A stretch of DNA of 32,000 bases from Candidatus Saccharimonadota bacterium (GTDB taxonomy: Bacteria; Patescibacteriota; Microgenomatia; UBA1406; GWC2-37-13): positions 150,001 to 182,000 of the forward strand of contig CP065004.1 of assembly GCA_016700135.1 (NCBI GenBank), in the 5' to 3' direction. Numbering within the stretch: the stretch's first letter is position 1; every line of letters starts with the position of its first letter. The notes beneath the pieces are model-generated. The model was not told where the DNA came from, did no database searches, and worked only from the letters and a program-made list of their open reading frames with translations. The position numbers and the translations under genes are program-made. Shown piece after piece: positions 5,686 to 32,000 of the stretch.

Positions 5686-5707
5686 ACTTCTTCTATTGTA
5701 CTAGAAT

Positions 5708-6874
5708 TTACCGTTCAAAAATGACTAATTCCTCTTCAGCACGCGTCACTCCTGTATACAACCATCGTCGCCATTCATCATCGTTCATTTTTCCGAAACG
5801 CTCTTCAAAGAGAACAACTTTTCGTGCCTGGCTTCCCTGTGCTTTGTGGACTGTCAGAGCATAACCGAAATCAAATAAATCTCCGATCATTATTTGTGAT
5901 CGTTCTTTCGTAAAGTTCAGTGCCGAATCGTGCCCGAATTGTTTGGATGAAATGAGACCTAAATACGGCTCATCTTCACCGTCCATTGAAATTTCTGCTC
6001 TATACCAGTCACTATTTTCTTCCTGAATGTCCCGAATGGTACCGATCATTCCGTTAAATATTCCTTTTTTATGATTATTTCGAAGGCAAATAACCCTATC
6101 TCCGACAGTCGGTTTGACTGTCTCAAATCCCAGTGCCTGTCTTATATGAGAATTTAGCCGTTTTCTCGTATGATTGTAACCGCAAAGAATAAGTGTATCT
6201 TCACTGTAGTTTTGCAGTAACTCGTTCATTTCCAGATATGCATCAGGATCTTCTTCCCCGTACTTCACAACACCTCCTCCGTATTGTCCCGGACGAATAT
6301 ACCCGTGTTCCCGTGCTTGAATAGAAATTCCGATAATCGGATTTTTCTCCGCCTGCCTGTGAATGTGTTCAAGAAGAATATCTGGTTTGTCCATAAGGTT
6401 AAATGATCCACGGATAGGCGGTAACTGGCCATGATCCCCAACCGCCAGAATGGGTACTTTATAGGACAATAAATGTTTCCAGATAACACCATCTACCATT
6501 GAAGCTTCATCGACTATGATGAGCTTTCGATCAATTTCCTCTTTCTGTTGCCATCCGATGATCTCTTCTTTCTCATTAACAACTGGTGAATAAATCAGTG
6601 AATGGATTGTACCGACTGTATCCTGTTTATATTTCACATCTTCATCTAGAAGTTTGCCGTGTAGTACTCGTGCCGCTTTCCCAGTATAAGACACAAAACC
6701 TACTTTTAATTTCGGATCCAGACTATCAAGCTGACGACGGAGATGTGCAAGGAGAGTCGATTTACCGGTTCCGGCATATCCTCCAAGTGTGATAAAACTT
6801 TTTTTATTCGGATCTTTATACCATGAAAGGATTAGATCAAGTGCCTGCTTTTGATCAGAGGAAAGAGTAATCAT
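5708..6874 (-). CDS. SF1 RecD/Pif1/Dda-like ATP-dependent DNA helicase
   Basis: Walker A GGYAGTGKST, Walker B IIVDEASMV, motif III AVGDHGQLPPI, motif V/VI LTVHKAQGSQARKVVL. Confidence 0.85.
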   Translation of the reverse strand: MITLSSDQKQALDLILSWYKDPNKKSFITLGGYAGTGKSTLLAHLRRQLDSLDPKLKVGFVSYTGKAARVLHGKLLDEDVKYKQDTVGTIHSLIYSPVVNEKEEIIGWQQKEEIDRKLIIVDEASMVDGVIWKHLLSYKVPILAVGDHGQLPPIRGSFNLMDKPDILLEHIHRQAEKNPIIGISIQAREHGYIRPGQYGGGVVKYGEEDPDAYLEMNELLQNYSEDTLILCGYNHTRKRLNSHIRQALGFETVKPTVGDRVICLRNNHKKGIFNGMIGTIRDIQEENSDWYRAEISMDGEDEPYLGLISSKQFGHDSALNFTKERSQIMIGDLFDFGYALTVHKAQGSQARKVVLFEERFGKMNDDEWRRWLYTGVTRAEEELVIFER

Positions 6875-11683: not shown

Positions 11684-12598
11684 TTATTTAAAAATTTCTT
11701 TAAAAACTACTTCTAATTCTTTATCTATATTGCTGGGTAATTTTGTATGTGGAATTTTTAAGTTTTTTAACACTGTATCAAATCTTTCAAATCCACCAAG
11801 ACTTCTTAATTCAACCCATTCAATTTTTAAACTATTCAATTGTTTTTTGTTAATGTCAGAAAGTTTGTCAGCTACAAAAACTTTACTGTCTCGTGCTATA
11901 ACCGCATCTGCACTTTCTGGATTCCCTCTTCCCATTAATTTTACTTCGCATTTATACTGATTTGTTCCTTCAACCAAATAAAAATCAATTTCTCTTTCAA
12001 AATCATCTTTTTCAATATCTTTACCTTTTATCTTTAAAGCATAGTTTGCTTCGGGAACACCGTATAATTTACAAAGAGTTTGCATTAGTGGTTTTTCTAC
12101 TCTCTTTCCCGCAGTACTCCATAACCCACCTCTTAATTCTGCTCTTTTAACTGCCAAAGTATTTATTACGATCAAACTCTCACTAACATTTAGATCAACA
12201 CTTACGCCTTTGAATTTGATAGTTAAGGTGAGTTCAAGATCGTGTTCTGTATCAACCAAATTCTTTATAGATTCATATAGTAAATCATAATGTTCATTTG
12301 ATGCATCAATTACTATTTCCTTTGTTGAGGAATTAAACATATTGTGGATTGTCTTTTTATTCAATCCGGAGTTTATAGCAATTTCCTTAGCTGGCAAATT
12401 TGGATTTAAAAAAGCTTTTTTATACCAATCAACAGTAATGTCTTTACTTTTTAGTTTTGCATCTACGATATGTTTAAAAAAATCTATTGCGAATTGTAAA
12501 AATTCAGCGTTAATCAACGTTACAACTTCAATTCTATAATCTTCGCCTTTCAGCAATTTCTTGATTATATTTTTAGCAACTTGTTCTGTTATTGTCAT
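11684..12598 (-). CDS. Putative type II restriction endonuclease (PD-(D/E)XK)
   Basis: EREIDFYLV...YKCEVKLMG fits a D...ExK nuclease core. Its start overlaps the methyltransferase stop by 4 nt (ATGA at 12595-98). The exact family was not recognised. Confidence 0.6.
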   Translation of the reverse strand: MTITEQVAKNIIKKLLKGEDYRIEVVTLINAEFLQFAIDFFKHIVDAKLKSKDITVDWYKKAFLNPNLPAKEIAINSGLNKKTIHNMFNSSTKEIVIDASNEHYDLLYESIKNLVDTEHDLELTLTIKFKGVSVDLNVSESLIVINTLAVKRAELRGGLWSTAGKRVEKPLMQTLCKLYGVPEANYALKIKGKDIEKDDFEREIDFYLVEGTNQYKCEVKLMGRGNPESADAVIARDSKVFVADKLSDINKKQLNSLKIEWVELRSLGGFERFDTVLKNLKIPHTKLPSNIDKELEVVFKEIFK

Positions 12599-14010
12599 AT
12601 ATTTTCCTTAATTATATTTATAAAATTTTTTATGTCGATGAAGTTTGGTTGATTATTCTTTTGATTAAACAAATCATCTTTTTTAATTAAATCTTCTTTC
12701 ATCCTATTTACATATTTTGCTTCTTTTTCTGTCAGGAAGAAATTCCTGTTAAGATTGACAGCAGCTCTTCCCAATGTTCCGCTTCCAGCGAATGGATCAA
12801 AAATTAAATCATCAACAAAAGAATAATATTTTATAACTCTATTGCATAATTCCATTGGAAAAACAGCACTGTGAACCCTATCAAAAGTAGGGTCTATGTG
12901 CCAAACATTCGTGGTTTCGTATTTGTCTTGAACTTTGCTTTTCTTTACTTTATCCCAACTATATTGATGTATATTCCAGTCAATTAGTTTATCTGTCTTT
13001 TTTCTATAAACCATTAGCATTTCAGTAATTGCGTTAGGTTTATAACCTAATGGTTTTCGATGTTGTAAAAAACCCGCATTTCTATTTTTTACACTTGCTT
13101 CGGGTTTCACCCAAACTATATCGTCGATAAACTCCCAACCCATTTTAACCAATAAAGGATGAATGTCATATGGAATAGGGTATCTTTTACTTGCGTGAGC
13201 ACGACTTATTCTAGGAATTATAATTGGTGAAGTATTAAGTACAAAAAATCTACCTTCTTTTGTAACCCGATGAACCTCTTTAAAAACTTCCTCTAAAAAA
13301 TTTAAATACTCATCATAACTCTGATAAATTGAATAATCTCTAGCATTGTAATAGGGCGGTGAAGTAAAAGTTAAGTGAACAGATTCTTCAGGAACATACT
13401 TTAATACCTCTAAAACATCTCCTTGAACAATAGTATTTTTTAAATATTTAGGAAATTCATCGTGCTTGCCGCTATTTTTTGAACTATAGCTTACACCATT
13501 AATTTCCTTACCTATAACCTCCTTTATTAACTCATTCGGATGATTAAGTAATTTAGATAACTCTTTTTTAACTTGGTCATTATTTGAAAAAACAAGTAAT
13601 CCACGAATGGCCTGCATTACAACTTTCGGATCTTTATCTGATAATAATTTTATCAAGACTGGAATAGTTTTCTCGTTTCTTAATCGCCCAATAGCAGAAA
13701 CTGATTCTCTTCTAACTTCAGTACTTTCATCTTGTTTTGCGAATTTAACGAAAGTATCTAGTAAGGAAATATCACCAATTTTTGCAAGATTCTTCAAGGC
13801 AAGTGATCTTATTGTCTCATTGTTATTCTCTAATAAATTCAATAGTGGTTGTTTGCTGTATCCATTTTTCAATCTTCCTAATTTCTCTAACACATAAACA
13901 ATAGTACCGTCATTTTGATCTTGTAGAAACGATAAAAGAGCTTTTGTATCATTTTTTAAACTATCAATCTGTTCTTTGTTTATTTGTTTGCTTAAAACTG
14001 ATCTATTCAT
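12595..14010 (-). CDS. Beta-class N4/N6 DNA methyltransferase with an N-terminal HEAT-repeat domain
   Basis: Motif IV TFTSPPYYNARDY (SPPY, typical of m4C enzymes) comes before motif I FDPFAGSGTLGRAA, which is the beta order. The first ~180 aa have PBS-lyase/HEAT-like repeats (ETIRSLALKNLAKIGD, STEVRRESVSAIGRL, DPKVVMQAIRGL). Confidence 0.9.
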   Translation of the reverse strand: MNRSVLSKQINKEQIDSLKNDTKALLSFLQDQNDGTIVYVLEKLGRLKNGYSKQPLLNLLENNNETIRSLALKNLAKIGDISLLDTFVKFAKQDESTEVRRESVSAIGRLRNEKTIPVLIKLLSDKDPKVVMQAIRGLLVFSNNDQVKKELSKLLNHPNELIKEVIGKEINGVSYSSKNSGKHDEFPKYLKNTIVQGDVLEVLKYVPEESVHLTFTSPPYYNARDYSIYQSYDEYLNFLEEVFKEVHRVTKEGRFFVLNTSPIIIPRISRAHASKRYPIPYDIHPLLVKMGWEFIDDIVWVKPEASVKNRNAGFLQHRKPLGYKPNAITEMLMVYRKKTDKLIDWNIHQYSWDKVKKSKVQDKYETTNVWHIDPTFDRVHSAVFPMELCNRVIKYYSFVDDLIFDPFAGSGTLGRAAVNLNRNFFLTEKEAKYVNRMKEDLIKKDDLFNQKNNQPNFIDIKNFINIIKENI

Positions 14011-14014
14011 AATT

Positions 14015-14230
14015 TTATTTCATTAAATTATCAATAGTAATCCCTAATCCGTTAGCTATCTTCATAACTGTTTGAATAGTCGGTTTGGTTATTACATTGC
14101 TTTCAATTTTGGTTAGTGTTGTATAAGGAAGATCGGATTTTCTCGCCAATTCATCCTGTGTCAAACCTTGCTTATTTCTAAGCTGTTTTATTTTATCCCC
14201 AATGGTTTCATTATTGTTTTGACTTTTCAT
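14015..14230 (-). CDS. XRE-family HTH protein, probable R-M controller (C) protein
   Basis: 71 aa (IKQLRNKQGLTQDELARKSDLPYTTLTKIESN), ending 4 nt upstream of the methyltransferase start. Confidence 0.85.
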   Translation of the reverse strand: MKSQNNNETIGDKIKQLRNKQGLTQDELARKSDLPYTTLTKIESNVITKPTIQTVMKIANGLGITIDNLMK

Positions 14231-14284
14231 AGTTTCCTAAGTATGATAGTATTAGTATGGGTGCTTATTTAACCCTTCATAAAT

Positions 14285-14313
14285 ATGATAACAAATATAC
14301 TGGAATCAATCAA
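14285..14313 (-). promoter_or_regulatory. Candidate promoter of the C-M-R operon
   Basis: Minus strand: TTGATT (14313-08), 17 nt, TATCAT (14290-85). An AGGAAA SD precedes ATG 14230. Confidence 0.4.
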
Positions 14314-14324
14314 ATTAAAAATGA

Positions 14325-14343
14325 GGGAAGCCCGCTTTTGGCC
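14325..14343. repeat. 19-nt inverted repeat, left arm (partner 14602-14620)
   Basis: gggaagcccgcttttggcc versus ggccaaaagcgggcttccc. The flanking aaattaaaaatga (14312-24) also pairs with 14627-39. Confidence 0.9.
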
Positions 14344-14371
14344 CAAAATGAAGTTCGAGCCGATATTTTTT
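14344..14371. repeat. 28-nt inverted repeat P, left copy (partner 15987-16014)
   Basis: caaaatgaagttcgagccgatatttttt is the exact reverse complement of 15987-16014, which lies inside the recombinase 3' coding region. Confidence 0.9.
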
Positions 14372-14391
14372 CAGGTTCTTTGGCAGTTTTT

Positions 14392-14503
14392 CAATCCGAA
14401 AGGGCGCTTCTGCGGGCGGGCGGAAGGGGGGTCTGGGGGAGAATTCCGCCCGCCCTACAAATTTTGGGCGAAATCAGTTCGAATTTTTTCGAAAGCACAC
14501 CGC
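14392..14503. repeat. Inverted repeat X, right copy (112 nt)
   Basis: See 11501-11612. Internal hairpin gggcgggcggaa (14414-25) / ttccgcccgccc (14444-55) with an 18-nt G-rich loop. Confidence 0.9.
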
Positions 14504-14583
14504 CAGTTAGGAAATGTCTTTGTTGGCTCGTCGCCTCTCTCGAGGGCTCGCCAGCCGATTTTAAGCGCAAATTGGAATTTTTT
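14500..14583. repeat. Inverted repeat Q, left copy (84 nt, perfect)
   Basis: ccgccagttaggaaatgtctttgttggctcgtcgcctctctcgagggctcgccagccgattttaagcgcaaattggaatttttt is the exact reverse complement of 16021-16104. Confidence 0.95.
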
Positions 14584-14601
14584 CTTTGCCCCGAATGGGC
14601 T

Positions 14602-14620
14602 GGCCAAAAGCGGGCTTCCC
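14602..14620. repeat. 19-nt inverted repeat, right arm (partner 14325-14343)
   Basis: See 14325-14343. Confidence 0.9.
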
Positions 14621-14652
14621 TAATTTTCATTTTTAATTTTTAAGAAGGAACT

Positions 14653-16265
<1,613 letters not shown>

Positions 16266-16281
<16 letters not shown>

Positions 16282-20606: not shown

Positions 20607-20936
20607 TTACAGTATTCCGTCTCCGACACCGAAAATAAATCCGAGAATCCGGGCGATAAGATATGACAACATCAAAAGGACAAAACCTATTATCCCTGCG
20701 GTCATCTTGGCTTTCCCGCTATTTACTTTGTCTGCATCGCCTCTTGACATCAAAAAGTCATACCCGCCCCAGATCAGTACAAGAAGAAGAATAACGGCCG
20801 CAAAAGGATAGAGAAAGTTAGTCATAACAGTTACCAGATCCGTGAGAGACGTAATTCCTTCCAGCGGACCTTTAATGGTTACGGCTTTACCGTTTTCAGG
20901 TTGTATAACCAATCCTTGGGCGAGAGTGTTTGTCAT
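20607..20936 (-). CDS. Two-TM T4SS-type (TrbC/VirB2-like) pilin candidate
   Basis: Hydrophobic helix, LIWGGYDFLMSRGDADKVNSGKAKMTAGIIGFVLLML, second helix. This is the pattern I recall for the Patescibacteria T4SS_pilin family. There is no obvious N-terminal signal peptide. ATGA overlap with the upstream gene. Confidence 0.55.
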   Translation of the reverse strand: MTNTLAQGLVIQPENGKAVTIKGPLEGITSLTDLVTVMTNFLYPFAAVILLLVLIWGGYDFLMSRGDADKVNSGKAKMTAGIIGFVLLMLSYLIARILGFIFGVGDGIL

Positions 20937-21610
20937 ATTTTCTTGGAAATCATTAACACTGTCTGCAACAAAAATAGTATAAGGGCATGTATCCCCAATG
21001 ATATCAGCAGATAGATATTAATAGCATACACAAAAGCGGAGGTAGCTTCAAGAAGCATGTCCCACTGGACAACTCGTGAAAAGTCAATCTGAAAAATGTA
21101 TATAATTCCGGCTGCAACAATAGCTACAGGAATGAGATATACAATATCAATTAAATCCTGTTTCGAGGAAAACATTGTGGTAGAAAGAATAAATACGAGC
21201 CATCCGACGGTTATTTTCAAAAAGATATTGGAAGATTCAAATATTTGCAGACTAAAAAGCCACCAAAAAAGTAGTAACCCGACAATAACAGGAGCAATTC
21301 CTACAAGGACGCTTCTGACAACATCTTTTTTTTCATAATAAACACTTCCGAGTTTGAGATACCTTCCTTCCCACTGCGGGAATACATGTATATCACGCAC
21401 TTTCAACAAAAGAATTACGGCCATCACGAAATGTGAAAGTTCGTGTATGACTGTTCCGGGAAAGAATATGAAAGCGATCAGACTGTAGACAATCTTTTCA
21501 TGATCAAAAATGAGCCGTAATACCTGAAACAATCGGGTGATACTGAGTCGGGAAACAAAAAAAAGGACTATGAGTTGAAGAATAAATAACCCGACTAAAA
21601 TAAGTTCCAT
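20933..21610 (-). CDS. Polytopic membrane protein with an HExxH zinc-protease motif (S2P/M50-like)
   Basis: PGTVIHELSHFVMA lies within a TM segment, with at least 5 further hydrophobic helices and a possible third-ligand region SSKQDLIDI. Confidence 0.65.
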   Translation of the reverse strand: MELILVGLFILQLIVLFFVSRLSITRLFQVLRLIFDHEKIVYSLIAFIFFPGTVIHELSHFVMAVILLLKVRDIHVFPQWEGRYLKLGSVYYEKKDVVRSVLVGIAPVIVGLLLFWWLFSLQIFESSNIFLKITVGWLVFILSTTMFSSKQDLIDIVYLIPVAIVAAGIIYIFQIDFSRVVQWDMLLEATSAFVYAINIYLLISLGIHALILFLLQTVLMISKKI

Positions 21611-21613
21611 GAC

Positions 21614-21766
21614 TTAAAGAATTTGCCGTGCAAGCAAATACGCAATGAGACCTAAAACAATAACGGTTAAAATACCGATAACTATAAAGAGTGTATTACT
21701 CAGTCCTTTCGTTTCAAATCGACGTTCAAATTCATCGACATTGAGAGGTGTATAGTTAGCAGTCAT
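21614..21766 (-). CDS. 50-aa single-TM peptide (below the ORF-track cutoff)
   Basis: Own translation: MTANYTPLNVDEFERRFETKGLSNTLFIVIGILTVIVLGLIAYLLARQIL*. It fills the gap between the ClpC-like stop (21778) and the protease start (21610). Confidence 0.4.
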   Translation of the reverse strand: MTANYTPLNVDEFERRFETKGLSNTLFIVIGILTVIVLGLIAYLLARQIL

Positions 21767-21777
21767 ACGGTAATCGG

Positions 21778-24700
21778 TTATGCCGTCTGCTGTTTTGCAG
21801 TACCATCAGCTGTCTGATCGGAAGCGGAACTCTGCTGCGGCGGTACCTCAGCTCCTGGCGCACTGTCAACAATTTGTGGTTTGATCGGTTCGAGCCCGTT
21901 CATTTTCCCGTTTGTCTGCTCTTTTTTGGGCGGTGCGGGAGGTACATCCATCGCCTTGTTCTCTGGTTTCTTTTCGGCAACAGCTTCAGATTTTTCCTGA
22001 GGTACTTCATCCTTCACTTCCTGGACTTCTATTGAGGCACACTTGGAACATATTGTTGTGGCAGTCGGAATGACGTCTGTTTCAAACTTATTGGCACATT
22101 TTTCACAGAAAAACTTGGCATGTCTCATCTTCTGACCGTCCTGGACATCTTCATCTTTGACTTCTTTCAGCTCAATTTTTTCAACATTGAAAATAAATTC
22201 ATCACCGTCAAAGTCTACAATAAGAGTATCACCGGCTTTCACTTTTTGAGCAATAATAAGCTCAGAAATCGGATTTTCAACCAGTTTCTGAATGGCGCGT
22301 CTTAATGGTCGTGCACCGAATACAGGATCAAATCCTTCGCGTACGATTGCTTTCTTTGCTGCATCCGTGACTGAGAAACCAATCTCCTGCTCTTCGAGGA
22401 GCTTTGCCAAAGCTTTCAGCTGAAGATCAACGATCTGAAGCATATGCTTGTATTTCAGCGGCTCAAATACGATGACTTCGTCAAAACGGTTGACAAGCTC
22501 AGGGCGGAAGAACTTCAGGAGTTCGTTCATAACCTTGTCCTTAATCACCTGATACTTCTTCACATCGGTCTGTTCTTCTACCTTTTCTTTTTCCTGTGCT
22601 TCCTTCTCAAGCGGGAAGTTCTTGCCGAAATACTCATCCAATGGTTGCATTTTCCATTCCGTTGCTTTCTGGTCACGATGCCATATATCATTACCCACGA
22701 TAACAATCTCTTTTCCTGTCGGTGTAAACGTATGGATATCCCAATGGGTTGCGGGAAAATTGTCATCTTTTACCGTCTGTCCCTCGAAATACTCTTTCAA
22801 AAGACCCGTCTGCCAGTCAGTACTCCCTGCTTTTCTTCTCCAAAAACGATCTTTGTATGACACAATTTCCATCTCATCAGGACTGAAGGCATGAGTCTTC
22901 AGACGCACCGTCGGCAACTGTTCATCCGGAGCATCAGGCAAGGCATTAATGACTACATTGTCATTGAAATAATCAATCAGATTTGTGACATTCCATACTT
23001 TCGAAGTGGTTGCGGTACGGGAATATATGATATCGCCCGTTGAGATCATTTCCACTCCTTTTGGTGAGATGGCATGAGTGTCATATCCGAATGTCGGGAA
23101 AGACGTGATTTTCGGTTTTTCTTCTGCCGGTTTTGCCTGCTCCTTTACGGGCTGCTCTTTGCCTTCAACAGTATTCTCTTCTTCAGGCTTTTCAGGCTCC
23201 GGTTGTTGCAATGCTTCAGGTTTTTGCGTCGGCATTTTGCCGTCAATTTTCTGTCCTGCAAAATACTCAGTCAATTTATGATCTGCCCAGGACATTTCGG
23301 CTTTCTGATCTTCTTTTTTTTCTTCAGGCTTCTGTTGCTGACCGTTTGTCATATCCAGACTGTTTGCGGTTGTGCCGTTGTCTCTTTCAAAATACTTATT
23401 CCCGATCGTCATAAGTTCACGACCTCTCGGCGTAAAAGCATACGTCGAAATGAGGGTCGGTTCTGCAACTTCCGACTTTCCGCTCTTCAACAGTTCCTTT
23501 TGAATGAGAGGAGTTCCGATGTTTGACGTACAGATCACGACGGTATTCTTGAACGAAATAGTTCGTCCTTTGTTGTCTGTCAAACGGGCATCATCAAGAA
23601 TCTGCAGCAGAATGTTGAAAATGTCAGGATGTGCTTTTTCAATTTCGTCAAAAAGAACGAGTGAATACGGCTTTCGGCGAACGGCCTCTGTCAGTTTTCC
23701 TCCGTCTTCAAATCCGACATAACCGGGAGGCGGCCCGAGAAGCTTTGCCACTTCATGACGCTCCATATATTCGGTCATATCAAATCGGGTTACGGCTTCT
23801 TCTTCATCAAAAAGTACTTCCGCAAGTGTCTTGGCAAGTTCCGTTTTTCCCACACCGGTCGGTCCCAAGAATACGAAACTACCGATCGGACGATTGTTCG
23901 ATTTCAAACCTGCCCGTCCGCGTCTCACGGCTTGGGCGACGGATGCCACCGCACGTTCCTGATCAATCATTCTTTTGTGAATGATGTCTTCGAGGTTTGA
24001 TAATTTGTCCTTCTCAGAAGTACCGATCTTGGATATCGGGATACCGGTTCTTGTGGCAACAATGTCTTTAATTATTTCAGGAGAAACAGCCGTGGTGGTC
24101 TGTGCTTTCTTCATATTGTATTCATCCTGTTTGACTTTCAGCTTGGCCTGTACATCATCAATTTTTGAGCGGAGAATGCGGGCCTTGACCTTTTCGCCTC
24201 TTCTTTCATCTTCCGCAAGCTCCTGATTGAGTTGAGCTACGCGGGTTTCTATTGAATGGATTTCTTCAGGAAGAGAAATGAGCGGCAGACGGACTGCTGC
24301 AGATGCTTCATCCATCAAATCAAATGCCTTGTCTGGAAGGAACCTGTCTCCGATGTACCTTTTTGAAAGTTTTACCGCCAGCTCGATAACTTCATCTGAA
24401 ATTTTTACTTTGTGGAATGCTTCATATTTACTTTTTGTAGCCTTCAGCATCTTGATGGCAGCCTCTTCTGTCGGTTCAGGAACAAGAACTGTCTGGAACC
24501 TTCTTTCAAGTGCCGGATCCTTTTCAATATATTTTCTGTATTCGGTAATTGTTGTTGCTCCGATAAACTGCACCTCACCTCTGGCCAGAGCCGGTTTTAT
24601 GAAATTGGATGCATCCAAGGCACCCTCACCGCTTCCAGCTCCCATCATTGTATGCATTTCATCTATGAACATGATAGCTTCACCTTTACTCGCTTTCAGT

Positions 24701-26211
24701 TCATCAACAACGCTTTTCATACGTTCTTCAAATTCTCCCCGATGAGATGCTCCGGCGACCACACTCGCTAAGTCAAGCTGGAGGATCTTTTTATTGAGAA
24801 GGCTTTCAGGAACCTGCTTTTCAACTATCCGTTGTGCAAGTCCTTCCACGACTGCAGTTTTTCCTACTCCCGGTTCACCGATAAGTGCCGGATTGTTTTT
24901 GATTCTGCGTGAAAGAATGTGTACCACTCTCTCAATAACAGGTGCTCTCTCGACAACAGGATCCAGCTCACCGTCAGCAGCTTTTTGTGTCAAATCAATA
25001 CAATACATCTGCAACGCAGATTTCTGCTTTTGCTTTTTATCGTCTTTTGTTGCCTCTGCTGAGAATACTCCGCCTTTCTTTCCGGTTATTCTTTTGTTGA
25101 TATCTTCTTTCGTGACTCCGAGTTTGACCAGTATACGGGCGCCTACGCCTTCACCTTCTTCATACAAAGCAAGAAGAAGATGTTCGGGGGAAATAAATTC
25201 ATAACCGAGTTTTCGCGCGACAACAAGGGATTTTTCAACTATTTGCTTCACGCGAGGAGACAGTTGCGGAGGGTTCTGACTTTCTTCTTTTTTATATATT
25301 TTCACGAGCTCCTGTTCTACAATCTGCGGCTGAATTTTCAAATCAATAAGGATTTTATAGATCTCACCGTCTGTCAAAAGTCCATGGAGGAGATGTTCAC
25401 TATCCATGTAGATATTTTTTAGTTCTTTTGCTTTTTTGTTTGCTTCGACAAACACAGCGTTTGAACGCTGAGTCAAATGGGTCATGATATCTAAATCATT
25501 TCTTTTCTTGCCGCTCAACGTGGAGTCCAAAACATTTTTCGCGGCAGACGGCTGAACGGAGCCGTCAATAGCCTTCTGACCGTCCTGATTTGCTGCGGGA
25601 TTTGATGTAGTTTCAGGTTTCTGAGTATCTGCTGAGAGTGTACTTTCAGTAGACGTTTCAGTCTTTTCCTTTGCCATATCATCAGGTTTCTGTAATGTAT
25701 TCTGTTCTTTTTTCATTTCAGCATCCATCTTTGTCTCTTCTGCAGGAACAGGTGTTCCCGTTGTATCATTCATTTTCGGCGGCGCCGGCGGCATATCAGC
25801 GGCTTTTACATCTGCCATCTCCGCTTTTTTCATTTCAGCTGCGGCTGGTACTGTGGCCGGTTCTGCCTGATTCACCGCTTTCGGTGGAGGGGTTCCGATA
25901 CCGTTATAAGACTGACCGTTAGGAGGATTACCGATTCCGTTATATGATTGACCGTGGGAAGGGTTACCTATTCCATTGTAGGAATCGCCGTGTGCAGGGT
26001 TTCCGATACCGTTATAAGACTGTCCGTTTGAGGGATTACCGATACCATTGTATGATTGCTGGCCGCTTGGCATCGGCGCATCAGTTTGTTGTGCAACAAC
26101 CTTCGGTTGATTTGATGTATTCATAGTAGGATTCGCGTCAGTAACTGACGTTGTGTCACTTGTATTTGCATTTGGGGTTTGTTTCTTTATAAAATCAAAT
26201 ATACCGGCCAT
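21778..26211 (-). CDS. clpC: Atypical ClpC-type class I AAA+ unfoldase (about 1477 aa) with N-terminal repeats, a D2 insertion and a C-terminal zinc ribbon
   Basis: Two Clp_N repeats ([30 protein letters not shown]). D1 has [15 protein letters not shown] and IMFIDEMH. Short ClpC-length M domain. D2 has [62 protein letters not shown]. Start set at M8 (26211) because a consensus promoter lies inside the longer ORF. Confidence 0.9.
25885..26064. repeat. 36-bp coding tandem repeat x5 ((G)[12 protein letters not shown])
   Basis: Units align at period 36 on the + strand (e.g. ...ttccgataccgttataagactg...). The peptide is conserved while the DNA units differ at many positions. Confidence 0.85.
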
Positions 26212-26217
26212 ATATTC

Positions 26218-26246
26218 ATTATGAGCAAGCATTTTCCAAATGTCAA
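26218..26246 (-). promoter_or_regulatory. Sigma70-type promoter of the clpC-like operon, leaderless geometry
   Basis: Minus strand: TTGACA (26246-41), 17 nt, CATAAT (26223-18), 6 nt, ATG (26211-09). Confidence 0.6.
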
Positions 26247-26256
26247 CATCAGATAT

Positions 26257-27030
26257 ATGAAGAAAATATCAATACTATTACTCTTACTTTTTTTGCTTTT
26301 TATGAGCTCGGCGACTTATTCGAGAGCCTCAAATGAGGAAAGCTCTGCAGAAAAGGTAAAAAAGCCTGCAAGGAATCTTTTTTACTTTTTTAAAGACATC
26401 GGTAATAATTCTTCTCCAGATACGGGTGCCCCTGATCCAACCTTACCACCAGACGCTTCACCTGCGCCTACTTATGGCCCTCCTCCCGCCCCGATTTATG
26501 ATACACAACTTGCTAACCTTATGGAAGCAATCAAACAGAAGGCTCACAGTAACTGTACTATGTTCGGGACCGGAATAGTAGCGACACAAAACAGTTACTG
26601 CGTCCAGCCTATCGCAAATGTCTCAGGGATCCAAAACGGTCAATCTGTTGTCAACGATATGAAATACTCTGCCGATAATTACTACTATCTGCAATGTGTA
26701 GGTTGCGCCGTCGCCATGGCAAAAGCAAACGGGAAACCGTACCTCGGATGGGGTAATGCAAAACAGCATGCGGATCAATCTGTCTTGGGATACACATATG
26801 TGCCTTACACTTCAGCTTCTTCGGCATATTCAGTCAAACCGGGCTCTTTGTTTATTCTGACAGGCGGGACATACGGACATATCGGAATGGTGTCTGAAAT
26901 TATTTATGACGAGAATAATAGACCTCATTCATTCCGAGGCTTTGAATGTAATTACCAGGCGAATGGGTATGTCAGCCACGAAAAAACCTGGGCATTTGAT
27001 CAGATAGCCGGTTTTCAGGTACCAAACTAA
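26257..27030 (+). CDS. Secreted CHAP-domain peptidoglycan hydrolase (H1)
   Basis: Signal peptide [24 protein letters not shown], leader [17 protein letters not shown], Pro-rich linker. CHAP triad context LQCVGCAV ... GHIGMVSEI ... FECNY. Confidence 0.8.
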
Positions 27031-27031
27031 C

Positions 27032-27757
27032 ATGAAACAAAAAAAATTAATTATTATTCTTGCAGTTGCCGTAATAATACTTCTAATAACTTTATTTTTT
27101 CTTAACATGAGAAGAAATGCGGGAACAGACGTCAAAGAGGAAATTGATACCCTTCCTACGGGAATTATTGTTCCTACCAACACTATAGAAAATAATGAAC
27201 TGGATATCGTATCCGTTTCACCATCAGACAGAGCACAAACTGTCAGTGTAAATACCTCAATCCGCATTACATTTTCCCGAAAACCCAAAGAAGAAGAAAT
27301 TGATTTTTTCATGGGTCCAGACGCAATCTACTCTCAGGAAATCAAAGATAATGTATTGATTATCACACCCTGGAAACCGCTCGCCGAAGGTACATTGTAC
27401 ACATATAGTATCAATTTCCCACAGGATAACCAAAAAGTCCGTCTGTATCGATTTGTAACTGAAGGGACACTGAGCGAAATTCTTCCTGATACGCGATCAA
27501 ATGACCTCATAGAAGAAGTTGAAGAAAAAGAACGGGTTAATCATCCTGACATATATATTACTAATAGAACACCTTTCGAAGACAGTACATTTTCAATCAG
27601 ATCTGATTTTGAACCCAAAACCCCTGCTCACTATTATTTTATCGTTACATCAAAAATCAATGACCGAAGTACTGTCGAGCAGGCTGTTAATGCTTGGCTG
27701 CAGCTTCAGGGCCTTACCGAACAACAAATTAACGGCCTGGATGTCCGTTATCAGTAA
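27032..27757 (+). CDS. Single-pass membrane protein with an Ig-like (SbsA_Ig/Big_5-type) ectodomain (M1)
   Basis: N-terminal TM LIIILAVAVIILLITLFFL. SVSPSDRAQTVSVNTSIRITFSRKP...VLIITPWKPLAEGTLYTYSI. Starts 2 nt after the H1 stop. Confidence 0.7.
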   Translation: MKQKKLIIILAVAVIILLITLFFLNMRRNAGTDVKEEIDTLPTGIIVPTNTIENNELDIVSVSPSDRAQTVSVNTSIRITFSRKPKEEEIDFFMGPDAIYSQEIKDNVLIITPWKPLAEGTLYTYSINFPQDNQKVRLYRFVTEGTLSEILPDTRSNDLIEEVEEKERVNHPDIYITNRTPFEDSTFSIRSDFEPKTPAHYYFIVTSKINDRSTVEQAVNAWLQLQGLTEQQINGLDVRYQ

Positions 27758-27760
27758 CAT

Positions 27761-28585
27761 ATGAAAAAAATTATTATCTTCTTCCTATCCCTGCTTGCTG
27801 TCGTTCAATCCGTTCGTGCCGAAATACCGATGATTGACCGGGGCGACGGGTATGCAGTTTATCCAACTTCTTCAAGCAAAAAAAGTGTTGAAAAAATTAA
27901 AGAAGTACCTCGTAATTTATTTAATTTTTGGGATTTTAACGAGGATAATAATCCGGATGAAATTCAACCCATCCCGACTCAGCAGCCATCCTTCATATCT
28001 GGGACACCTGTACCGTCTCCAGTACCGACAGCAGCGCAGACAAACCCCACTCTTCCTCCTGCTCAAACTACAGCCGGCTGTCCGGATGCAAATACCAGAA
28101 TTCATATTTCAGGTACGCGTTATCGACATCTCAATAGATATCTTCCCTGCGACCGGCCGCGCATGCTAGTGATCCATTGGTCTGCCGGTTGGTCATCGGC
28201 ACAGGCAACATTTGACGTGCTTAATAATCGCGACCGTTCATGTCAGTTTGCAGTTGATGACCATGAAGTGATACAAATGCTGAACCTTTATCCTAACGCC
28301 GTCGAGCGGGGATGGTGCGCTGGTGGAGATGCCAATACGGGATCTATCAACTTTGAGATCACCGGTGCATGGTTTGATGAAGTACTGCTGCAATCAGGTT
28401 CGGAAAAAAACAGACAGCTTATGATCATGACGGACAAGACCGTAGATATCGCCTGCAGAATGATACAAATGTACAGTATACCGAAAACGGCAATTTACGG
28501 ACATTATCAACTTCAATCAGGAAAATCTGACCCGGGAGTATCCTATTTACAATTTTTTAAGCAAAAAGTAAACGAGCGATGTTAA
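27761..28585 (+). CDS. Secreted N-acetylmuramoyl-L-alanine amidase (Amidase_2/PGRP fold) (H2)
   Basis: Signal peptide ...VQSVRA, leader EIPMIDRGDGYAVYPT...EKIKEVPRNLFNFWDF, Pro-rich linker. VIHWSAG (Zn His), INFEITG, YGHYQL..GKSDPG (AmpD-like His/Lys/Asp). Confidence 0.85.
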   Translation: MKKIIIFFLSLLAVVQSVRAEIPMIDRGDGYAVYPTSSSKKSVEKIKEVPRNLFNFWDFNEDNNPDEIQPIPTQQPSFISGTPVPSPVPTAAQTNPTLPPAQTTAGCPDANTRIHISGTRYRHLNRYLPCDRPRMLVIHWSAGWSSAQATFDVLNNRDRSCQFAVDDHEVIQMLNLYPNAVERGWCAGGDANTGSINFEITGAWFDEVLLQSGSEKNRQLMIMTDKTVDIACRMIQMYSIPKTAIYGHYQLQSGKSDPGVSYLQFFKQKVNERC

Positions 28586-29181
28586 ATTTCATTGATCTGC
28601 AGGAAAAAAAATATACAATCATCATTGCAGTATCTTCAGTAGTACTGATCCTTATTCTGGTGATATCGGGAATACTGGTCCGAAATCGCAGTAACCCCAC
28701 GGAAACTGTGTCGGGTACGCCAATTAATCCAACGGGCGTACAGACTGCACAGATTTCACCGACTGAAATTCCTGCTAACTATTATGTATTACCTACTCCT
28801 CTATCAGATGAAAATGTGCCGACGGCACCACCAACACCTGTTCCTCAAGAAGGAGATATCATACTAGACGGCATCGCAGTAAACGATTTTAAGGAAAATG
28901 CAGAACGAACTACTGTTGACGGCGATACCGTCCTAGCAGAAACAAGTAATTACCAGATTGTATTTTATGAAAAGACACAGGAGTTTACCATCAGCCTGAT
29001 AGGCACAGATTTTGAAAAATCCAGAATCGCAGCCGAAAATGCTTTCCTCGTAAACCTGGAGATAGATCGTGCGAATGCCTGCAGACTTTTCGTGAATGAA
29101 TATGTGCCCAACACCGTCAACAATGAACACAGCGGTGAAATATTACCCTTAAGTTTCTGCTATCATGAACATGATGAGTAA
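28579..29181 (+). CDS. Single-pass membrane protein, unknown ectodomain (M2)
   Basis: TM YTIIIAVSSVVLILILVISGILV, then a Pro/Thr linker. Overlaps the H2 stop by 7 nt. Confidence 0.7.
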   Translation: MLNFIDLQEKKYTIIIAVSSVVLILILVISGILVRNRSNPTETVSGTPINPTGVQTAQISPTEIPANYYVLPTPLSDENVPTAPPTPVPQEGDIILDGIAVNDFKENAERTTVDGDTVLAETSNYQIVFYEKTQEFTISLIGTDFEKSRIAAENAFLVNLEIDRANACRLFVNEYVPNTVNNEHSGEILPLSFCYHEHDE

Positions 29182-30079
29182 ATTTGTTACCGGAATAGTA
29201 ATTACTTTTGTATTTCTGGTCGTAACCTCTGTAATATTTGCCGAGATGCCTATGATCGATCGGGGAGACGGATATGCCGTTTATCCCACACGAAAGAAAA
29301 CTACAATAGAAAAAATAAAAGAAGTTCCGAAATCTCTTTTTGATTTGTTTGATGGTTCGGGGACCTCTGGGAATAACCAACCCACTCCTATACCAACTTC
29401 CGAAGCGGGCATCACACCGGGTCTAACGCCCGGGGTAAGTACCACACCAATCGACGCTTCAAGCCCGATCGATAATATCCTTCAGGGAAGTGAAGTTACC
29501 TATTCACCCGCAATTATTGCAAGCGTAAGGAACTGTATGACGAATGCGAATGTATATAAAATTGCAGAGCAGCGGACAGGAGTATCATGGAAAATCATCG
29601 CAGGAATTCACTATATGGAAGGGAACTGCGGGAGCAATAAATCCTGCGTCAGCGGCAGACAGCTCGGTGTCAATGAACCCGATCTGTACGGTAATTGTTC
29701 TGGAGGAGGCGGGGAAGGCCGGCCGGTTCCTCTCGGAGGGGGAGGATGCGGTTTTAGGAATCTGGTTGACAGCTGCATCTATGGAGGAAATCACCTCAAA
29801 GGAAAAATTCAGGGAAGAGTTCCTCAAACTCTGCAGGAACTCGCCTATGCGCTGGGAAGATACAACGGACTCGGAAACAGAAACTGCGGAAAAACCCCCT
29901 ATGCACACTGCCCGCCTTCGTTTGACAATGATGATCATATTTACCCGATGAGCCAATTTGATAAGAAGCATGAGACAATGTATCTTGTGTACTGTGCCGA
30001 CTATACGACATGTAATCCGCCGCGAATCTTTCAAAGAATCGGAGCTTTGAGTGTTGCAAGGATCCTGACAAACTTATGA
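29165..30079 (+). CDS. Secreted Cys/Gly-rich protein, possibly a lysozyme-like/lytic transglycosylase (H3)
   Basis: Signal peptide ...TSVIFA, leader EMPMIDRGDGYAVYPT...EKIKEVPKSLFDLFDG, Pro/Thr linker. WKIIAGIHYMEGNCG resembles an SLT-type catalytic Glu context, and there are 12 Cys. The catalytic assignment is tentative. Confidence 0.6.
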   Translation: MNMMSKFVTGIVITFVFLVVTSVIFAEMPMIDRGDGYAVYPTRKKTTIEKIKEVPKSLFDLFDGSGTSGNNQPTPIPTSEAGITPGLTPGVSTTPIDASSPIDNILQGSEVTYSPAIIASVRNCMTNANVYKIAEQRTGVSWKIIAGIHYMEGNCGSNKSCVSGRQLGVNEPDLYGNCSGGGGEGRPVPLGGGGCGFRNLVDSCIYGGNHLKGKIQGRVPQTLQELAYALGRYNGLGNRNCGKTPYAHCPPSFDNDDHIYPMSQFDKKHETMYLVYCADYTTCNPPRIFQRIGALSVARILTNL

Positions 30080-30636
30080 AACTAACTAACAAAAAAATTA
30101 TTATATTGATCTCTGCTCTGGTCGGAGTACTTGTTCTGATAATCTTAATACTGAATGTGATAACACAACGGAAAGAAACCGCTACTCCTGAGACAAATCC
30201 CGAAGTTATAAAGAAGGAAGTACAAAAGGTAATTGAAATTACGGAAGTTCCCCGGGTTCCTGATGAAAAGGGAGGAGGGATTGATACTGATTCTCCTGAA
30301 GTAAAGACCTCCGTTCAGTCATTACAAAAGCTTCAATCAGCGCTTCCCTTTTATAAAATTTTCACAACTGAAGACGGAACAGAAGTCGAAGTTTCCATTC
30401 CTCCTACATCAACAATTTCAAATGAGTGGACTTTACTCGTCCATATTTTCGGCCCGGACTATCAGATTCCCGAAGATTCGTCCGATTATGAGACTCAAAA
30501 ACAAGCATTTCTGGCCGGAGTAAGTGAAGTTATGCTTTTTCTCGAAGAACAGGAAATCAATCCTTCAGAAATAATCATCCAATGGGGCGACAGAGCAATC
30601 ATAGGTGACCGGTCTGCCAAATGGCTTTCGGAATAA
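30076..30636 (+). CDS. Single-pass membrane protein, unknown ectodomain (M3)
   Basis: TM IIILISALVGVLVLIILILNV. ATGA overlap with the H3 stop. Confidence 0.7.
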   Translation: MKLTNKKIIILISALVGVLVLIILILNVITQRKETATPETNPEVIKKEVQKVIEITEVPRVPDEKGGGIDTDSPEVKTSVQSLQKLQSALPFYKIFTTEDGTEVEVSIPPTSTISNEWTLLVHIFGPDYQIPEDSSDYETQKQAFLAGVSEVMLFLEEQEINPSEIIIQWGDRAIIGDRSAKWLSE

Positions 30637-30644
30637 ATCCGTCG

Positions 30645-30674
30645 TTGACTTTCTTTTCCGTTTTGCAGTAGAAT
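30645..30674 (+). promoter_or_regulatory. Sigma70-type promoter, leaderless geometry
   Basis: TTGACT (30645-50), 18 nt, TAGAAT (30669-74), 7 nt, ATG 30682. Confidence 0.55.
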
Positions 30675-30681
30675 GAATTGT

Positions 30682-32000
30682 ATGTTTAAGTATCTGCTTT
30701 TAATGGGTTTTGGATTCTCCAAGTATGCTTTCCATGTCGTGAAACGAATAATGATTGTTTTACTGGTTTTTACCTCAGTTATTTCTTTATTTTTCTTCTT
30801 TAGGCAAGATAAAAAAATTCAGGATAACGCTTCATATATGTCTGTTCAACGAGAAAGAATATATATGAATATCGAAGCTATGAAAAAAGATACTTCATCG
30901 GAAGGTAAAGCAAAACTGTTTGTATATCAAGGATGGATGTGTAACATCATAGGAGAAGCTTGTACCGACAATCCCGAAGATGCAAATATGAACGTCAGAA
31001 ATAGCCTTTCAGGAATCATAACCGGATGGATCACAGCACCGTATGCAAATCCTCCAGCATCCGGGATAGCCTGGCTGAAAGACGGTTTCCGTGATGCTGG
31101 TTTTGTACCGGAGACTTATGCTGCAACGGGAGTGGGCTTCGCATCTATTGCAAGTTATATGGAAATTTGGAAGCTGTTTAGGGATATTGCTTATCTTATC
31201 TTAGTGTTGGTCATGATAACGATAGGATTCATGATAATGTTTAGAGTTAATCTCGGAGGAGCCGCAGTAAGCATTGAGGCTGCCCTCCCACGAATTGTAA
31301 TCGCAATGATTATGATTACATTTTCATTCCCAATAGCAGGTTTCTTGATTGACCTTATGTATACATTAATCGCCATTAGCGTTGGTTTATTCTTTGATGT
31401 TGCGATTCAACAAGATGCTCTTACAGGCGAATATTCCTCTGCAAAGGAATATCTCAATCAGTATATGACAGCCGGTATTTGGCAAATCTGGCCAGACGGC
31501 GGTGGTACATATTTTTCCGTAGGTAACAGTTTATGGAGACTCATGCCAGCATCAGTACAAAACATGTTTCATATTGCAATGGTTGTACCGCTTGCAGTTA
31601 CTGCTGCTGATAAGTTCGGATGGATGACAGGTAAAATTGCAGACTTATTTAAGGGACTCTCCCTTGCCGGATTTAGTTCTGGAAACTTGGCAGGTATTCC
31701 GCATGTGGTCTTATTATCAGTACTCTTCGGAGCATTAGTTATATGGGGACCCGGATTAATTTTTGGGGGAATTATTATGCTCACAGTGCTACTCTTTGTA
31801 TTCCGGATATTTTTTATGCTGCTCGAGTCTTATATTAAAATTTTACTTTACATTATTTTTGCGCCAATTATTTTGCTCTTTAGCGCTATACCAGGAAACG
31901 GAAATATCGGCTGGTGGTTACGAAACCTTATAGGAGAGCTTATAACATTTCCAACAGTAATTGTCCTTACACTAGTAGGCAACGCCGTTCTCGCAGTGAA
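30682..32000 (+). CDS. Polytopic membrane protein, VirB6/TrbL-like candidate (3' end beyond the window)
   Basis: Own translation of frame 1, with no stop to nt 32000 and so absent from the ORF track: MFKYLLLMGFGFSKYAFHVVKRIMIVLLVFTSV...FRIFFMLLESYIKILLYIIFAPIILLFSAIPGNGNIGWWLRNLIGELITFPTVIVLTLVGNAVLAV. At least 6 hydrophobic helices. Confidence 0.7.
   Translation, partial: MFKYLLLMGFGFSKYAFHVVKRIMIVLLVFTSVISLFFFFRQDKKIQDNASYMSVQRERIYMNIEAMKKDTSSEGKAKLFVYQGWMCNIIGEACTDNPEDANMNVRNSLSGIITGWITAPYANPPASGIAWLKDGFRDAGFVPETYAATGVGFASIASYMEIWKLFRDIAYLILVLVMITIGFMIMFRVNLGGAAVSIEAALPRIVIAMIMITFSFPIAGFLIDLMYTLIAISVGLFFDVAIQQDALTGEYSSAKEYLNQYMTAGIWQIWPDGGGTYFSVGNSLWRLMPASVQNMFHIAMVVPLAVTAADKFGWMTGKIADLFKGLSLAGFSSGNLAGIPHVVLLSVLFGALVIWGPGLIFGGIIMLTVLLFVFRIFFMLLESYIKILLYIIFAPIILLFSAIPGNGNIGWWLRNLIGELITFPTVIVLTLVGNAVLAV

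Follow-up and report, generated by a model that had tools for sequence, protein, structure and literature searches.

Why would a bacterium of the Patescibacteriota keep three unlike cell-wall hydrolases in one compact array, each of them secreted and each followed at once by a small membrane protein of its own, in a locus that also encodes a pilin of a type IV secretion system (T4SS)? The question is raised by the 32,000-nucleotide stretch of DNA analysed here and called the window, which covers positions 150,001 to 182,000 (forward strand) of contig CP065004.1, assembly GCA_016700135.1, of Candidatus Saccharimonadota bacterium, placed by GTDB in the Microgenomatia. The array lies at 26257-30636 of the window and is composed of six co-directional genes in the order H1-M1-H2-M2-H3-M3, the H genes encoding the hydrolases and the M genes their membrane partners. 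The answer that we favour, with chances that we put at about even, is that the array is the wall-remodelling module of a T4SS-like pilus or secretion locus of Patescibacteria (Microgenomatia), a PrgK/TraG-like hydrolase that has been split into separate enzymes with tethering or regulating partners. The observations on which this answer draws are the gene order, the domains, the strict pairing of enzyme with partner, the distribution and selection pattern of a leader peptide, gene fusions and the locus context.

Three enzymes and three membrane partners

The original prediction, made from the sequence alone, had seen three pairs of a hydrolase and a membrane partner here, with gene spacings of +1, -7 and -4 nucleotides, and the open reading frames (ORFs) and the sequence agree with it: H1 and M1 are separated by a 1-nucleotide gap, H2 and M2 overlap by 7 nucleotides and H3 and M3 by 4. 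The H3 ORF opens at 29165, and the likely true start is 29171 because a 100%-identical database protein of 302 residues (P0001) starts there. A longer H1 ORF with a TTG start (26179) was rejected as an artefact, since its extra stretch lies antisense to the part of the divergent ClpB-like gene that encodes a conserved N-terminus. As read from the sequence, the N-termini of H1, H2 and H3 are hydrophobic stretches ending in an AxA-type site (SRA/S, VRA/E and IFA/E, respectively), and those of M1-M3 are hydrophobic helices of 20-25 residues without such a site, as is also seen in the model of M3.

Two of the enzymes belong to known families, as had been predicted, with scores above the gathering cut-offs of the hidden Markov models (HMMs). 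H1, which has a signal peptide at residues 1-24 and a Pro-rich linker after the half leader described below, matched CHAP (PF05257) over residues 139-218 (E 2.2e-8; 34.9 bits where 26 are required), and by sequence reading it carries LQCVGCAV and GTYGHIGMV, candidates for the catalytic Cys and His motifs that are kept in orthologues. H2 is composed of a signal peptide (residues 1-20), the leader, a Pro/Thr linker and an amidase domain at residues 132-259, and its match to Amidase_2 (PF01510) spans positions 4-130 of the 131 in the profile (E 3.3e-11; 44.1 bits where 26 are required). Its segments IHWSAG, YGHY and KSDPG, candidates for the zinc ligands by sequence reading, are kept in the related locus L007. 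H3 has a signal peptide at residues 1-24, a Pro/Thr/Gly linker and a catalytic domain at about residues 100-302, and it had been called lysozyme-like. The predicted fold is in keeping with this description, but membership of GH23 or the SLT families by sequence profile does not hold, since the best Pfam match of H3, SLT_2, is below threshold (E 0.24; 11 bits where 24.3 are required). H3 matched no Pfam or NCBIfam family, a profile of 25 family members found no sequence relative in the PDB, and searches of the array proteins with NCBIfam and PADLOC gave nothing further.

What is known of H3 comes from its family and its model. The first search returned at least 45 homologues, the best annotation among them being 'lysozyme family protein', and their alignment has the core H..E..C...S.VSGR..G..EPD, the motif YNG.GN.NC and nine invariant Cys; the family-invariant residues of H3 include H147, E150, C153, S158, R163, EPD169-171 and YNG231-233. 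The catalytic part of the AlphaFold model has a predicted local distance difference test (pLDDT) score above 90. When this model was compared with the PDB by Foldseek, nearly all top matches were lysozyme-like glycosidases of peptidoglycan or chitin (g-type lysozyme, MltE, MltF, SltB, FlgJ and a chitinase), the best of them weak (E 0.04, prob 0.92, TM-score 0.44). In BFVD the top match was a phage peptidoglycan-binding-like protein (E 5e-4, prob 1.0), and glucosaminidase, SLT and tail-lysin proteins came next. The invariant E150, a candidate for the catalytic Glu, ends the helix 140-151 of the model, and the invariant YNG, in the alignment and the model, recalls the 'AYNAG' motif of SLT enzymes. 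From the modelled fold, we accept H3 as a predicted divergent lysozyme-like glycosidase at the level of the superfamily, outside any named family.

The partners are single-pass membrane proteins of different make. M1 has an N-terminal transmembrane (TM) helix, a Big_5 Ig-like domain (residues 54-128; Pfam, 9.4e-9) and a small C-terminal alpha/beta domain, which aligned to Mc, a fourth partner family encoded in relatives, with 55% probability and an E-value of 1.2e-4 in hhalign; the two domains may thus share a weak and distant likeness. In M2 a TM helix at about residues 13-35 is joined by a Pro/Thr linker to a C-terminal domain that contains two Cys. In the model of M3 (mean pLDDT 87, ectodomain above 93), a TM helix at residues 5-30 and a linker lead to an ectodomain at residues 74-185 with the topology alpha-beta-beta-beta-alpha-beta-alpha. 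M2 and M3 matched no known family in Pfam, NCBIfam or PADLOC. M3 has no PDB relative by sequence profile, its fold has no PDB match by Foldseek (best E 0.066, TM-score below 0.25), and a profile search gathered at least 197 family members, all unannotated. A VirB8/NTF2-like identity of M3 was rejected, as no such match appeared by PDB profile or among the top 50 Foldseek matches listed. By position M3 is of the type of the bitopic subunits VirB8, PrgL, TraM, TraH and TcpC, with an N-terminal TM helix and a gene that adjoins a hydrolase gene in a T4SS-type locus. The weak common pattern that had been read into the C-termini of M1-M3 found no statistical support, the hhalign probabilities being 0.2% for M1-M2, 1.3% for M1-M3 and 0.4% for M2-M3. 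A single M family was likewise rejected on the hhalign results, save for the weak link between the M1 C-terminus and Mc.

A common leader and strict pairing in relatives

The mature N-termini of H2 and H3 share a leader of about 40 residues directly after the signal peptide (BLASTP, 2e-20 across the N-terminal 92 residues), the catalytic parts of the two being unrelated by BLASTP, and H1 has the second, helical half of the leader only (2e-7); leader and half leader are as the original prediction had described them. No leader region of any H protein had a match in Pfam, NCBIfam or PADLOC; we therefore rejected the leader as an ordinary domain already described, which had been named as the finding that would speak against it. 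In distant relatives the leader takes the form (I/M/F)D-x-G-x-G, then 15-25 variable residues, an amphipathic helix and a leash rich in Pro, Thr and Gly. In the H3 model it is of low confidence save for one helix. The leader was found on at least five enzyme types (CHAP, Amidase_2, H3, C39_2 and M14+C39_2), and its HMM, run against the 698 proteins of all loci, matched H-type enzymes only. Against 1.84e9 representative proteins the leader profile gave 11 matches, of which nine were true and fell at about residues 24-73 of CHAP, C39_2, M14 or H3 enzymes. The other two (P0172, P0176) were internal stretches of repetitive low-complexity proteins, and a leader on non-hydrolase cargo was rejected. 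A strict-leader scan of GTDB genomes returned three loci only, the exact PMIDRGDGYAVYP form being limited to a small Roizmanbacteria-like clade; broader forms came to light only by way of the H3 family.

Within one genome the leaders are much alike. Those of the CHAP, Amidase_2 and H3 enzymes of L007 are 63-89% identical to one another and 28-36% identical to the leaders of the window, as compared to 41-52% (or 41-55%) identity between the catalytic parts of L007 and the window, and the same likeness within the genome was seen in L020 (about 88% between the CHAP and H3 leaders) and in L036. The same codon was used at 19 of 35 and at 17 of 38 identical leader residues. Since about half of the identical residues differ in codon, recent gene conversion was rejected as the cause, and it is selection acting at the peptide level that maintains the likeness. 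Such selection is purifying and directed toward a common partner, and the best explanation of the leader is docking, in co-evolution with a single putative receptor that is shared by the enzymes and changes rapidly.

Two side observations concern the leader. In L023 the C39_2 enzyme (gene at 3683-4552) bears a clear leader, GPLIDRGDGYAVG..., and the H3 enzyme (gene at 5013-5753; 246 residues, P0034) has a signal peptide with neither leader nor linker, so the leader is not obligatory for H3. The linker of M3 (30230-30300, about residues 52-75) has a conserved P..P.E(K)GGG(I/V/L)D..(S/A)PEV followed by a helix, also in L014, L015 and L017, which resembles the P.ID.G.G and helix of the enzyme leader; the leader HMM matches M3 at E~1.5, and the likeness may be due to chance or to a common docking site.

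Pairing was followed in relatives. A metagenome scan with the H3 family added 66 loci, 75 were mapped in total, and all ORFs were searched with iterated HMMs for each enzyme and partner family; the counts that follow are of distinct loci with enough downstream DNA. A CHAP gene was followed by an M1-family gene in 9/9 loci, an Amidase_2 gene by an M2-family gene in 7/7 and a gene of the Peptidase_C39_2 type by an Mc gene in 10/10, and an M3-family gene stood directly downstream of the H3-domain gene in 47 of 54, with a 4-nucleotide overlap at 23 of 38 H3-M3 junctions. The M genes are thus syntenic with the hydrolases, a lack of which would have counted against the predicted pairs. The window comes from an uncultured, ultra-small bacterium that is Roizmanbacteria-like, and the closest related contigs are CAZDDM010000004.1 and that of Ca. 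Roizmanbacteria UBA1450. In UBA1450 and two related assemblies the slot of Amidase_2 and M2 is taken by a 557-residue Peptidase_M14 + C39_2-like enzyme, which keeps the leader and is followed by an Mc-type partner. Other relatives have two pairs only, C39_2/Mc and H3/M3.

The 75 loci also contain fusions of these parts. A TM helix, an Mc domain and H3 are joined in P0022-P0024 (loci L014-L019, L026 and L027-L031), a TM helix, Mc and C39_2 are joined in L026 and L031, and in L060 one 616-residue protein holds both H3 and C39_2 and is followed by Mc. Judged by their architecture, the fusions show that enzymes and partner domains function together at the membrane, and by analogy they recreate the architecture of PrgK and TraG.

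Are these pairs effectors with their immunity proteins? The original prediction had seen in the array the logic of a polymorphic effector/partner system, and in such a system the hydrolases would be released, or handed by way of the leader to a T4SS-like pilus, against the wall of a host or neighbour, and the M proteins would be membrane-tethered immunity. As for the logic, the data agree: a constant N-terminal module stands on several enzyme types, the downstream partner is strictly specific to the type, and Amidase_2/M2 is replaced by M14+C39_2/Mc between sister species with the leader kept. In addition, the start/stop overlaps are typical of effector-immunity pairs, the cleavable signal peptides of the window enzymes predict secretion, and the Foldseek matches of H3 include 4g9s, a lysozyme-inhibitor complex, and 4kt3, a complex of a T6SS glycosidase effector. 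The lifestyle is also suitable, as Patescibacteria live as epibionts and need their T4SS in order to grow on a host (PMC10633639, PMC12857230). As for the toxin/immunity function, on the other hand, several findings speak against it. The would-be immunity domain Mc is fused, together with an anchor, to enzymes, even to the different enzyme H3; H3-M3 is not a variable cassette but a deeply conserved core pair beside a channel-like protein across Patescibacteria; and no M1, M2, M3 or Mc gene without an enzyme, nor any truncated payload cassette, was catalogued in the 75 mapped loci, there being a few extra unclassified single-TM genes downstream in L034, L037, L060, L065 and L073. Moreover, the leader stands behind a Sec signal and hence is no classical cytoplasmic T4SS signal, no inhibitor or immunity fold was recognised for M3 by Foldseek against the PDB, and in the closest experimental precedent, PrgK:PrgL, the complex probably serves to target the enzyme to the T4SS (PMC11323569). 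We regard effector/immunity as possible and rather unlikely. A further version is that the leader is an extracytoplasmic, two-step targeting signal, which brings the enzymes to a fast-evolving pilus component and onto the host wall, with the four M families as membrane-tethered cognate inhibitors that protect the cell's own wall; this we hold to be unlikely.

The locus and its link to type IV secretion

The order of the locus is syntenic in every Microgenomatia relative examined (features of the window in Table 1). The left flank, on the minus strand, encodes the VirB2-like pilin, a 7-TM protein with an HExxH motif, a 50-residue TM protein and the giant ClpB-like AAA+ protein. The plus strand then carries the H-M pairs, two or three in number, and after them the multipass protein of about 570 residues, and the right flank converges on it from the minus strand with a Cys-rich protein that has a C-terminal pilin domain, a protein of about 1340 residues, jag, yidC and rpmH. 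In other classes of the candidate phyla radiation (CPR), the H3 domain forms the C-terminus of proteins of 800-975 residues encoded directly after arrays of six to nine small 2-TM proteins, and this large H3 protein is followed by M3 and then by the multipass protein. Ten of the small 2-TM proteins were tested and all were PF18895 T4SS pilins. Such pilin-array loci, with the H3 gene at about 6001, are L040, L043, L047, L050-L054, L057, L061, L063, L064 and L071. The first ~600 residues of the large H3 proteins had no Pfam match. Pilin arrays are a hallmark of the T4SS of Patescibacteria (PMC12102498; PMC10633639).

Table 1. Array genes, leader regions and neighbouring genes in the window (positions of the window; residues where a region of a protein is meant)
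Feature	Position	Strand	Description	Basis
VirB2-like T4SS pilin	20607..20936	-	109 aa, 2 TM; position conserved in relatives	Pfam T4SS_pilin (PF18895) 6.1e-8
ClpB-like AAA+ protein	21778..26232	-	giant protein, 1484 aa	ORF; Pfam on orthologues; locus maps
H1	26257..27030	+	secreted CHAP-domain peptidoglycan amidase/endopeptidase (predicted), 257 aa	ORF, Pfam, leader alignment
H1 half leader	26329-26397	+	residues ~25-47	leader alignment
M1	27032..27757	+	single-pass membrane partner of CHAP enzyme, 241 aa	ORF, Pfam Big_5, hhalign
H2	27761..28585	+	secreted Amidase_2 (N-acetylmuramoyl-L-alanine amidase family), 274 aa	ORF, Pfam, leader alignment
H2 full leader	27821-27937	+	residues 21-59	leader alignment
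M2	28579..29181	+	single-pass membrane partner of Amidase_2 enzyme, 200 aa	ORF
H3	29171..30079	+	secreted Cys-rich lysozyme-like enzyme (predicted), 302 aa	family alignment, AlphaFold model, Foldseek
H3 full leader	29243-29356	+	residues 25-62	leader alignment
M3	30076..30636	+	single-pass membrane partner of H3, 186 aa	family profile, model
Multipass protein (B6L), 5' part	30673..32000	+	~570 aa, 9-12 predicted TM; runs past window end

The adjacent T4SS-like context of the original prediction is real. The PF18895 pilins and the triad of H3, M3 and multipass protein speak for it, and no VirB4 was seen within about 10 kb. Because VirB4, VirD4 and VirB3 are not found nearby, the T4SS label rests on the pilin domains and on the synteny with pilin arrays. 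A large neighbour (881-1359 residues; 1341) was considered as VirB4 or another ATPase and rejected, as it has no convincing Walker A/P-loop and no Pfam match. By its position the multipass protein, which matched no Pfam or NCBIfam family, could be a VirB6-like channel subunit. A 2025 survey reported that homologues of VirB1, VirB6 and VirB8 are scarce in Microgenomatia, that the role of VirB8 may fall to an entirely unrelated protein, with the question raised whether proteins of other kinds take over these functions, and that the few matches to mating-pair formation profiles (TrsG, CD419, VirB1) in Patescibacteria are rarely near virB4 (PMC12102498).

Could the M proteins then be independent structural subunits of the T4SS-like machine, which replace missing VirB8-like or other bitopic parts and bind no hydrolase in particular? 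The T4SS operons of Gram-positive bacteria are rich in small bitopic proteins, the gene next after M3 is the multipass gene in 13 of the 24 loci that could be assessed, and the conservation of M3 is similar to that of the multipass protein, identities between relatives being 31-39% for the M3 ectodomain, 39% for the multipass protein and 45-70% for H3. That M3 diverges about as fast as the multipass protein, and that its family is broad, is typical of a machine component and speaks for the wall-remodelling account as well. Independence from the enzymes, however, is hard to square with the co-variation of M type with enzyme type, which is complete for CHAP, Amidase_2 and C39_2 (26/26), with the way enzyme and partner are exchanged as a pair in slot 2 and with the fact that H3 and M3 stay together even where no multipass gene adjoins; the M3 fold, moreover, is not NTF2-like. 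We consider this explanation quite improbable.

A very doubtful reading, in our judgement, is that the enzymes are housekeeping autolysins for growth and division with membrane regulators, and that pilin genes lie nearby, close to the replication origin, by coincidence. CHAP, Amidase_2 and lysozyme-like enzymes are indeed the usual equipment of autolysis, the locus has a conserved chromosomal setting close to jag, yidC and rpmH, and genomes of about 0.9 Mb may hold few other hydrolases. Such a coincidence fits poorly with distant classes of Patescibacteria, in which H3-M3 goes together with the multipass protein and arrays of VirB2-like pilins in surroundings that otherwise differ. The number and type of enzymes also vary between close relatives, with two or three pairs and the slot swap, which would be unusual for core division enzymes.

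Several neighbouring genes deserve mention in their own right. In the ClpB-like protein SYNGIGNP is repeated five times near the N-terminus, the AAA domains are separated by a large insert of repeated F(T/S)P.G.E... modules, and the C-terminus is a zinc ribbon, CxxC...CxxC; its orthologue (1187-1514 residues) divergently adjoins the array in every Microgenomatia-type locus seen; it is conceivable that it is a dedicated unfoldase for this machine. The starts of this gene and H1 are about 24 nucleotides apart on opposite strands, so each promoter must lie inside the coding sequence of the other gene. A near-consensus TTGACA-17-CATAAT is found by these starts, at 26246-26218 (-), and a promoter-like TTGACT-18-TAGAAT at 30645-30674 (+), in the 36-45-nucleotide gap between M3 and the multipass gene, which may have a promoter of its own; the promoter and terminator scans overall did no better than on shuffled sequence. 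The conserved trio at 20607-21766 (-) is composed of the pilin (109 residues), a 225-residue 7-TM protein and a 50-residue single-TM protein. The 7-TM protein has a membrane-embedded HELSH motif and weak similarity to Peptidase_M50 (0.045), and could be a protease that processes pilins or leaders. The Cys-rich secreted protein that converges on the multipass gene (L001, 13655-15736 (-), and orthologues of 480-693 residues) varies in length and has a T4SS_pilin domain at its C-terminus (3.8e-7). It may be a fusion of the pilus-tip or adhesin-pilin kind, and it is a candidate for the fast-evolving receptor of the leader. Further upstream in the window, an island of 30% GC holds the gene of a CfrBI-like restriction endonuclease (11684-12598) and that of an N4/N6 DNA methylase with fused HEAT repeats (12595-14010), and a large serine recombinase (14653-16281) adjoins them; the region 11684-16281 is probably an integrated mobile restriction-modification element.

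A proposed split hydrolase beside a secretion-like machine

According to the wall-remodelling account, the three Sec-exported hydrolases would together cut both the stem-peptide and the glycan bonds of peptidoglycan, as CHAP enzyme, MurNAc-L-Ala amidase and divergent lysozyme-like glycosidase. Each would be co-expressed with a bitopic membrane protein specific to its type, the ectodomain of which would bind the cognate catalytic domain and so keep the enzyme membrane-bound next to the machine and under restraint or regulation, as PrgL may do for PrgK. The leader, a disordered ID-x-G-x-G motif followed by an amphipathic helix, would dock on a single component of the apparatus or envelope, common to all the enzymes and evolving fast, and the Pro/Thr leashes would tether all enzymes round the same site, so that a local hole is opened in the wall. 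Physical binding of H to M, the receptor of the leader and the regulation are what we infer, and the wall that is cut may be the cell's own, that of the host, or both.

The monoderm conjugation systems offer the nearest parallel. PrgK is composed of LytM, SLT and CHAP domains and TraG of SLT and CHAP domains, both being Gram-positive, membrane-anchored VirB1-like hydrolases. In the PrgK-PrgL (pCF10) and TraG-TraH/TraM (pIP501) systems, of the MPF_FATA class, glycosidase and cysteine-peptidase activities serve a monoderm T4SS, and the hydrolase domains predict such activities here, in a locus with VirB2-like pilins and a multipass protein. As with PrgK-PrgL, the gene directly downstream of a hydrolase gene encodes a single-pass protein of about 180-210 residues with its anchor at the N-terminus, and relatives of the window encode fused, membrane-anchored versions. 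PrgK and PrgL form a 1:1 complex that is thought to target the enzyme to the machine, and the muramidase of PrgK is down-regulated by accessory domains (PMC11323569). The differences are considerable. Instead of one anchored protein there are two or three separate Sec-secreted enzymes with cleavable signal peptides, each with its own type of partner; the enzymes of the window share a leader that PrgK and TraG lack; the set includes an Amidase_2 (or M14) enzyme; and, unlike PrgL and the SLT enzymes, M3 is not NTF2/VirB8-like and H3 is not detectably SLT by sequence. H1-H3 also lack the N-terminal anchor of the VirB1-like monoderm hydrolases (PrgK, TraG, CwlT and TcpG), anchored fusions occurring only in relatives.

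Within the Patescibacteria, Southlakia epibionticum ML1, one of the Saccharibacteria, is similar in that its T4SS locus lies near the origin region and encodes a VirB6-like protein and arrays of PF18895 pilins (PMC10633639; PMC12102498), and in that it cannot grow as an epibiont without its own peptidoglycan hydrolases (PMC10633639 Table S2; PMC12102498). Its SEML1_0006 (lysozyme-like twice, and a cysteine protease) and SEML1_0007 (DD-peptidase-like) adjoin virB4 and are essential (PMC10633639 Table S2). Its hydrolase domains, however, are fused in large proteins beside virB4, whereas the window has no VirB4 nearby; it has an NTF2-like VirB8 homologue, SEML1_0012; and neither a leader module nor an enzyme-specific bitopic partner is described there.

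As compared to polymorphic toxins (Tae-Tai and Tge-Tgi of the T6SS, X-Tfe/X-Tfi of the Xanthomonas and Stenotrophomonas T4SS, TelC-TipC of the T7SS), the array is alike in its constant targeting module with variable payloads, in the cognate small protein directly downstream that faces the same compartment as the substrate of the enzyme, and in the joint swapping of payload and partner between strains. It differs in that the constant module is a short N-terminal peptide behind a Sec signal and not a C-terminal XVIPCD, a PAAR/Rhs or an LXG domain, and in the fusion of partner domains to enzymes, with H3-M3 as the conserved core of the locus. In Gram-positive autolysins (choline-binding, GW, SLH, CWB2, LysM), too, different hydrolases of one genome share a non-catalytic targeting module. 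Those modules are folded repeats of 20-70 residues, usually in several copies, which bind wall polymers, whereas the leader of the window is a single, mostly disordered mature N-terminus of about 40 residues with a leash, limited to the enzymes of this locus.

Several facts weigh against the wall-remodelling account. VirB4, VirD4 and VirB3 were not seen within about 10 kb in any Microgenomatia locus; M3 directly precedes the multipass gene in little over half of the assessable loci, another large gene following H3-M3 in 11 of 24; the window enzymes carry cleavable-type signal peptides and not membrane anchors; M3 is not VirB8/NTF2-like by fold or sequence, which makes the analogy with PrgL one of position and function only; some H3 proteins, such as P0034 of L023, lack the leader; and strict cognate pairing with a slot swap is expected equally of an effector/immunity system.

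It is already known that T4SS loci, those of Patescibacteria included, contain peptidoglycan hydrolases and that a hydrolase can form a complex with a bitopic partner. In the literature searched, we did not find described secreted enzymes in a split array whose four partner families are each specific to an enzyme type, a shared co-evolving leader, or the H3 and M3 families. The locus offers candidates for the VirB1-, VirB6- and VirB8-type jobs that are largely missing in Microgenomatia (PMC12102498), namely the lysozyme-like family H3, the bitopic family M3 with its many members and unmatched predicted fold, the partners M1, M2 and Mc, and the multipass protein. A leader that is uniform within a genome and diverges fast between genomes is a signature of co-evolution with a shared receptor, and it gives a handle on how uncultured epibionts localise wall cutting at a secretion or pilus machine, and on own wall versus host wall; that machine is essential in the one genetically tractable relative. 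If the leader were instead the two-step signal onto the host wall, the array would be a modular, swappable wall-breaching kit for host attachment, feeding and perhaps host range.

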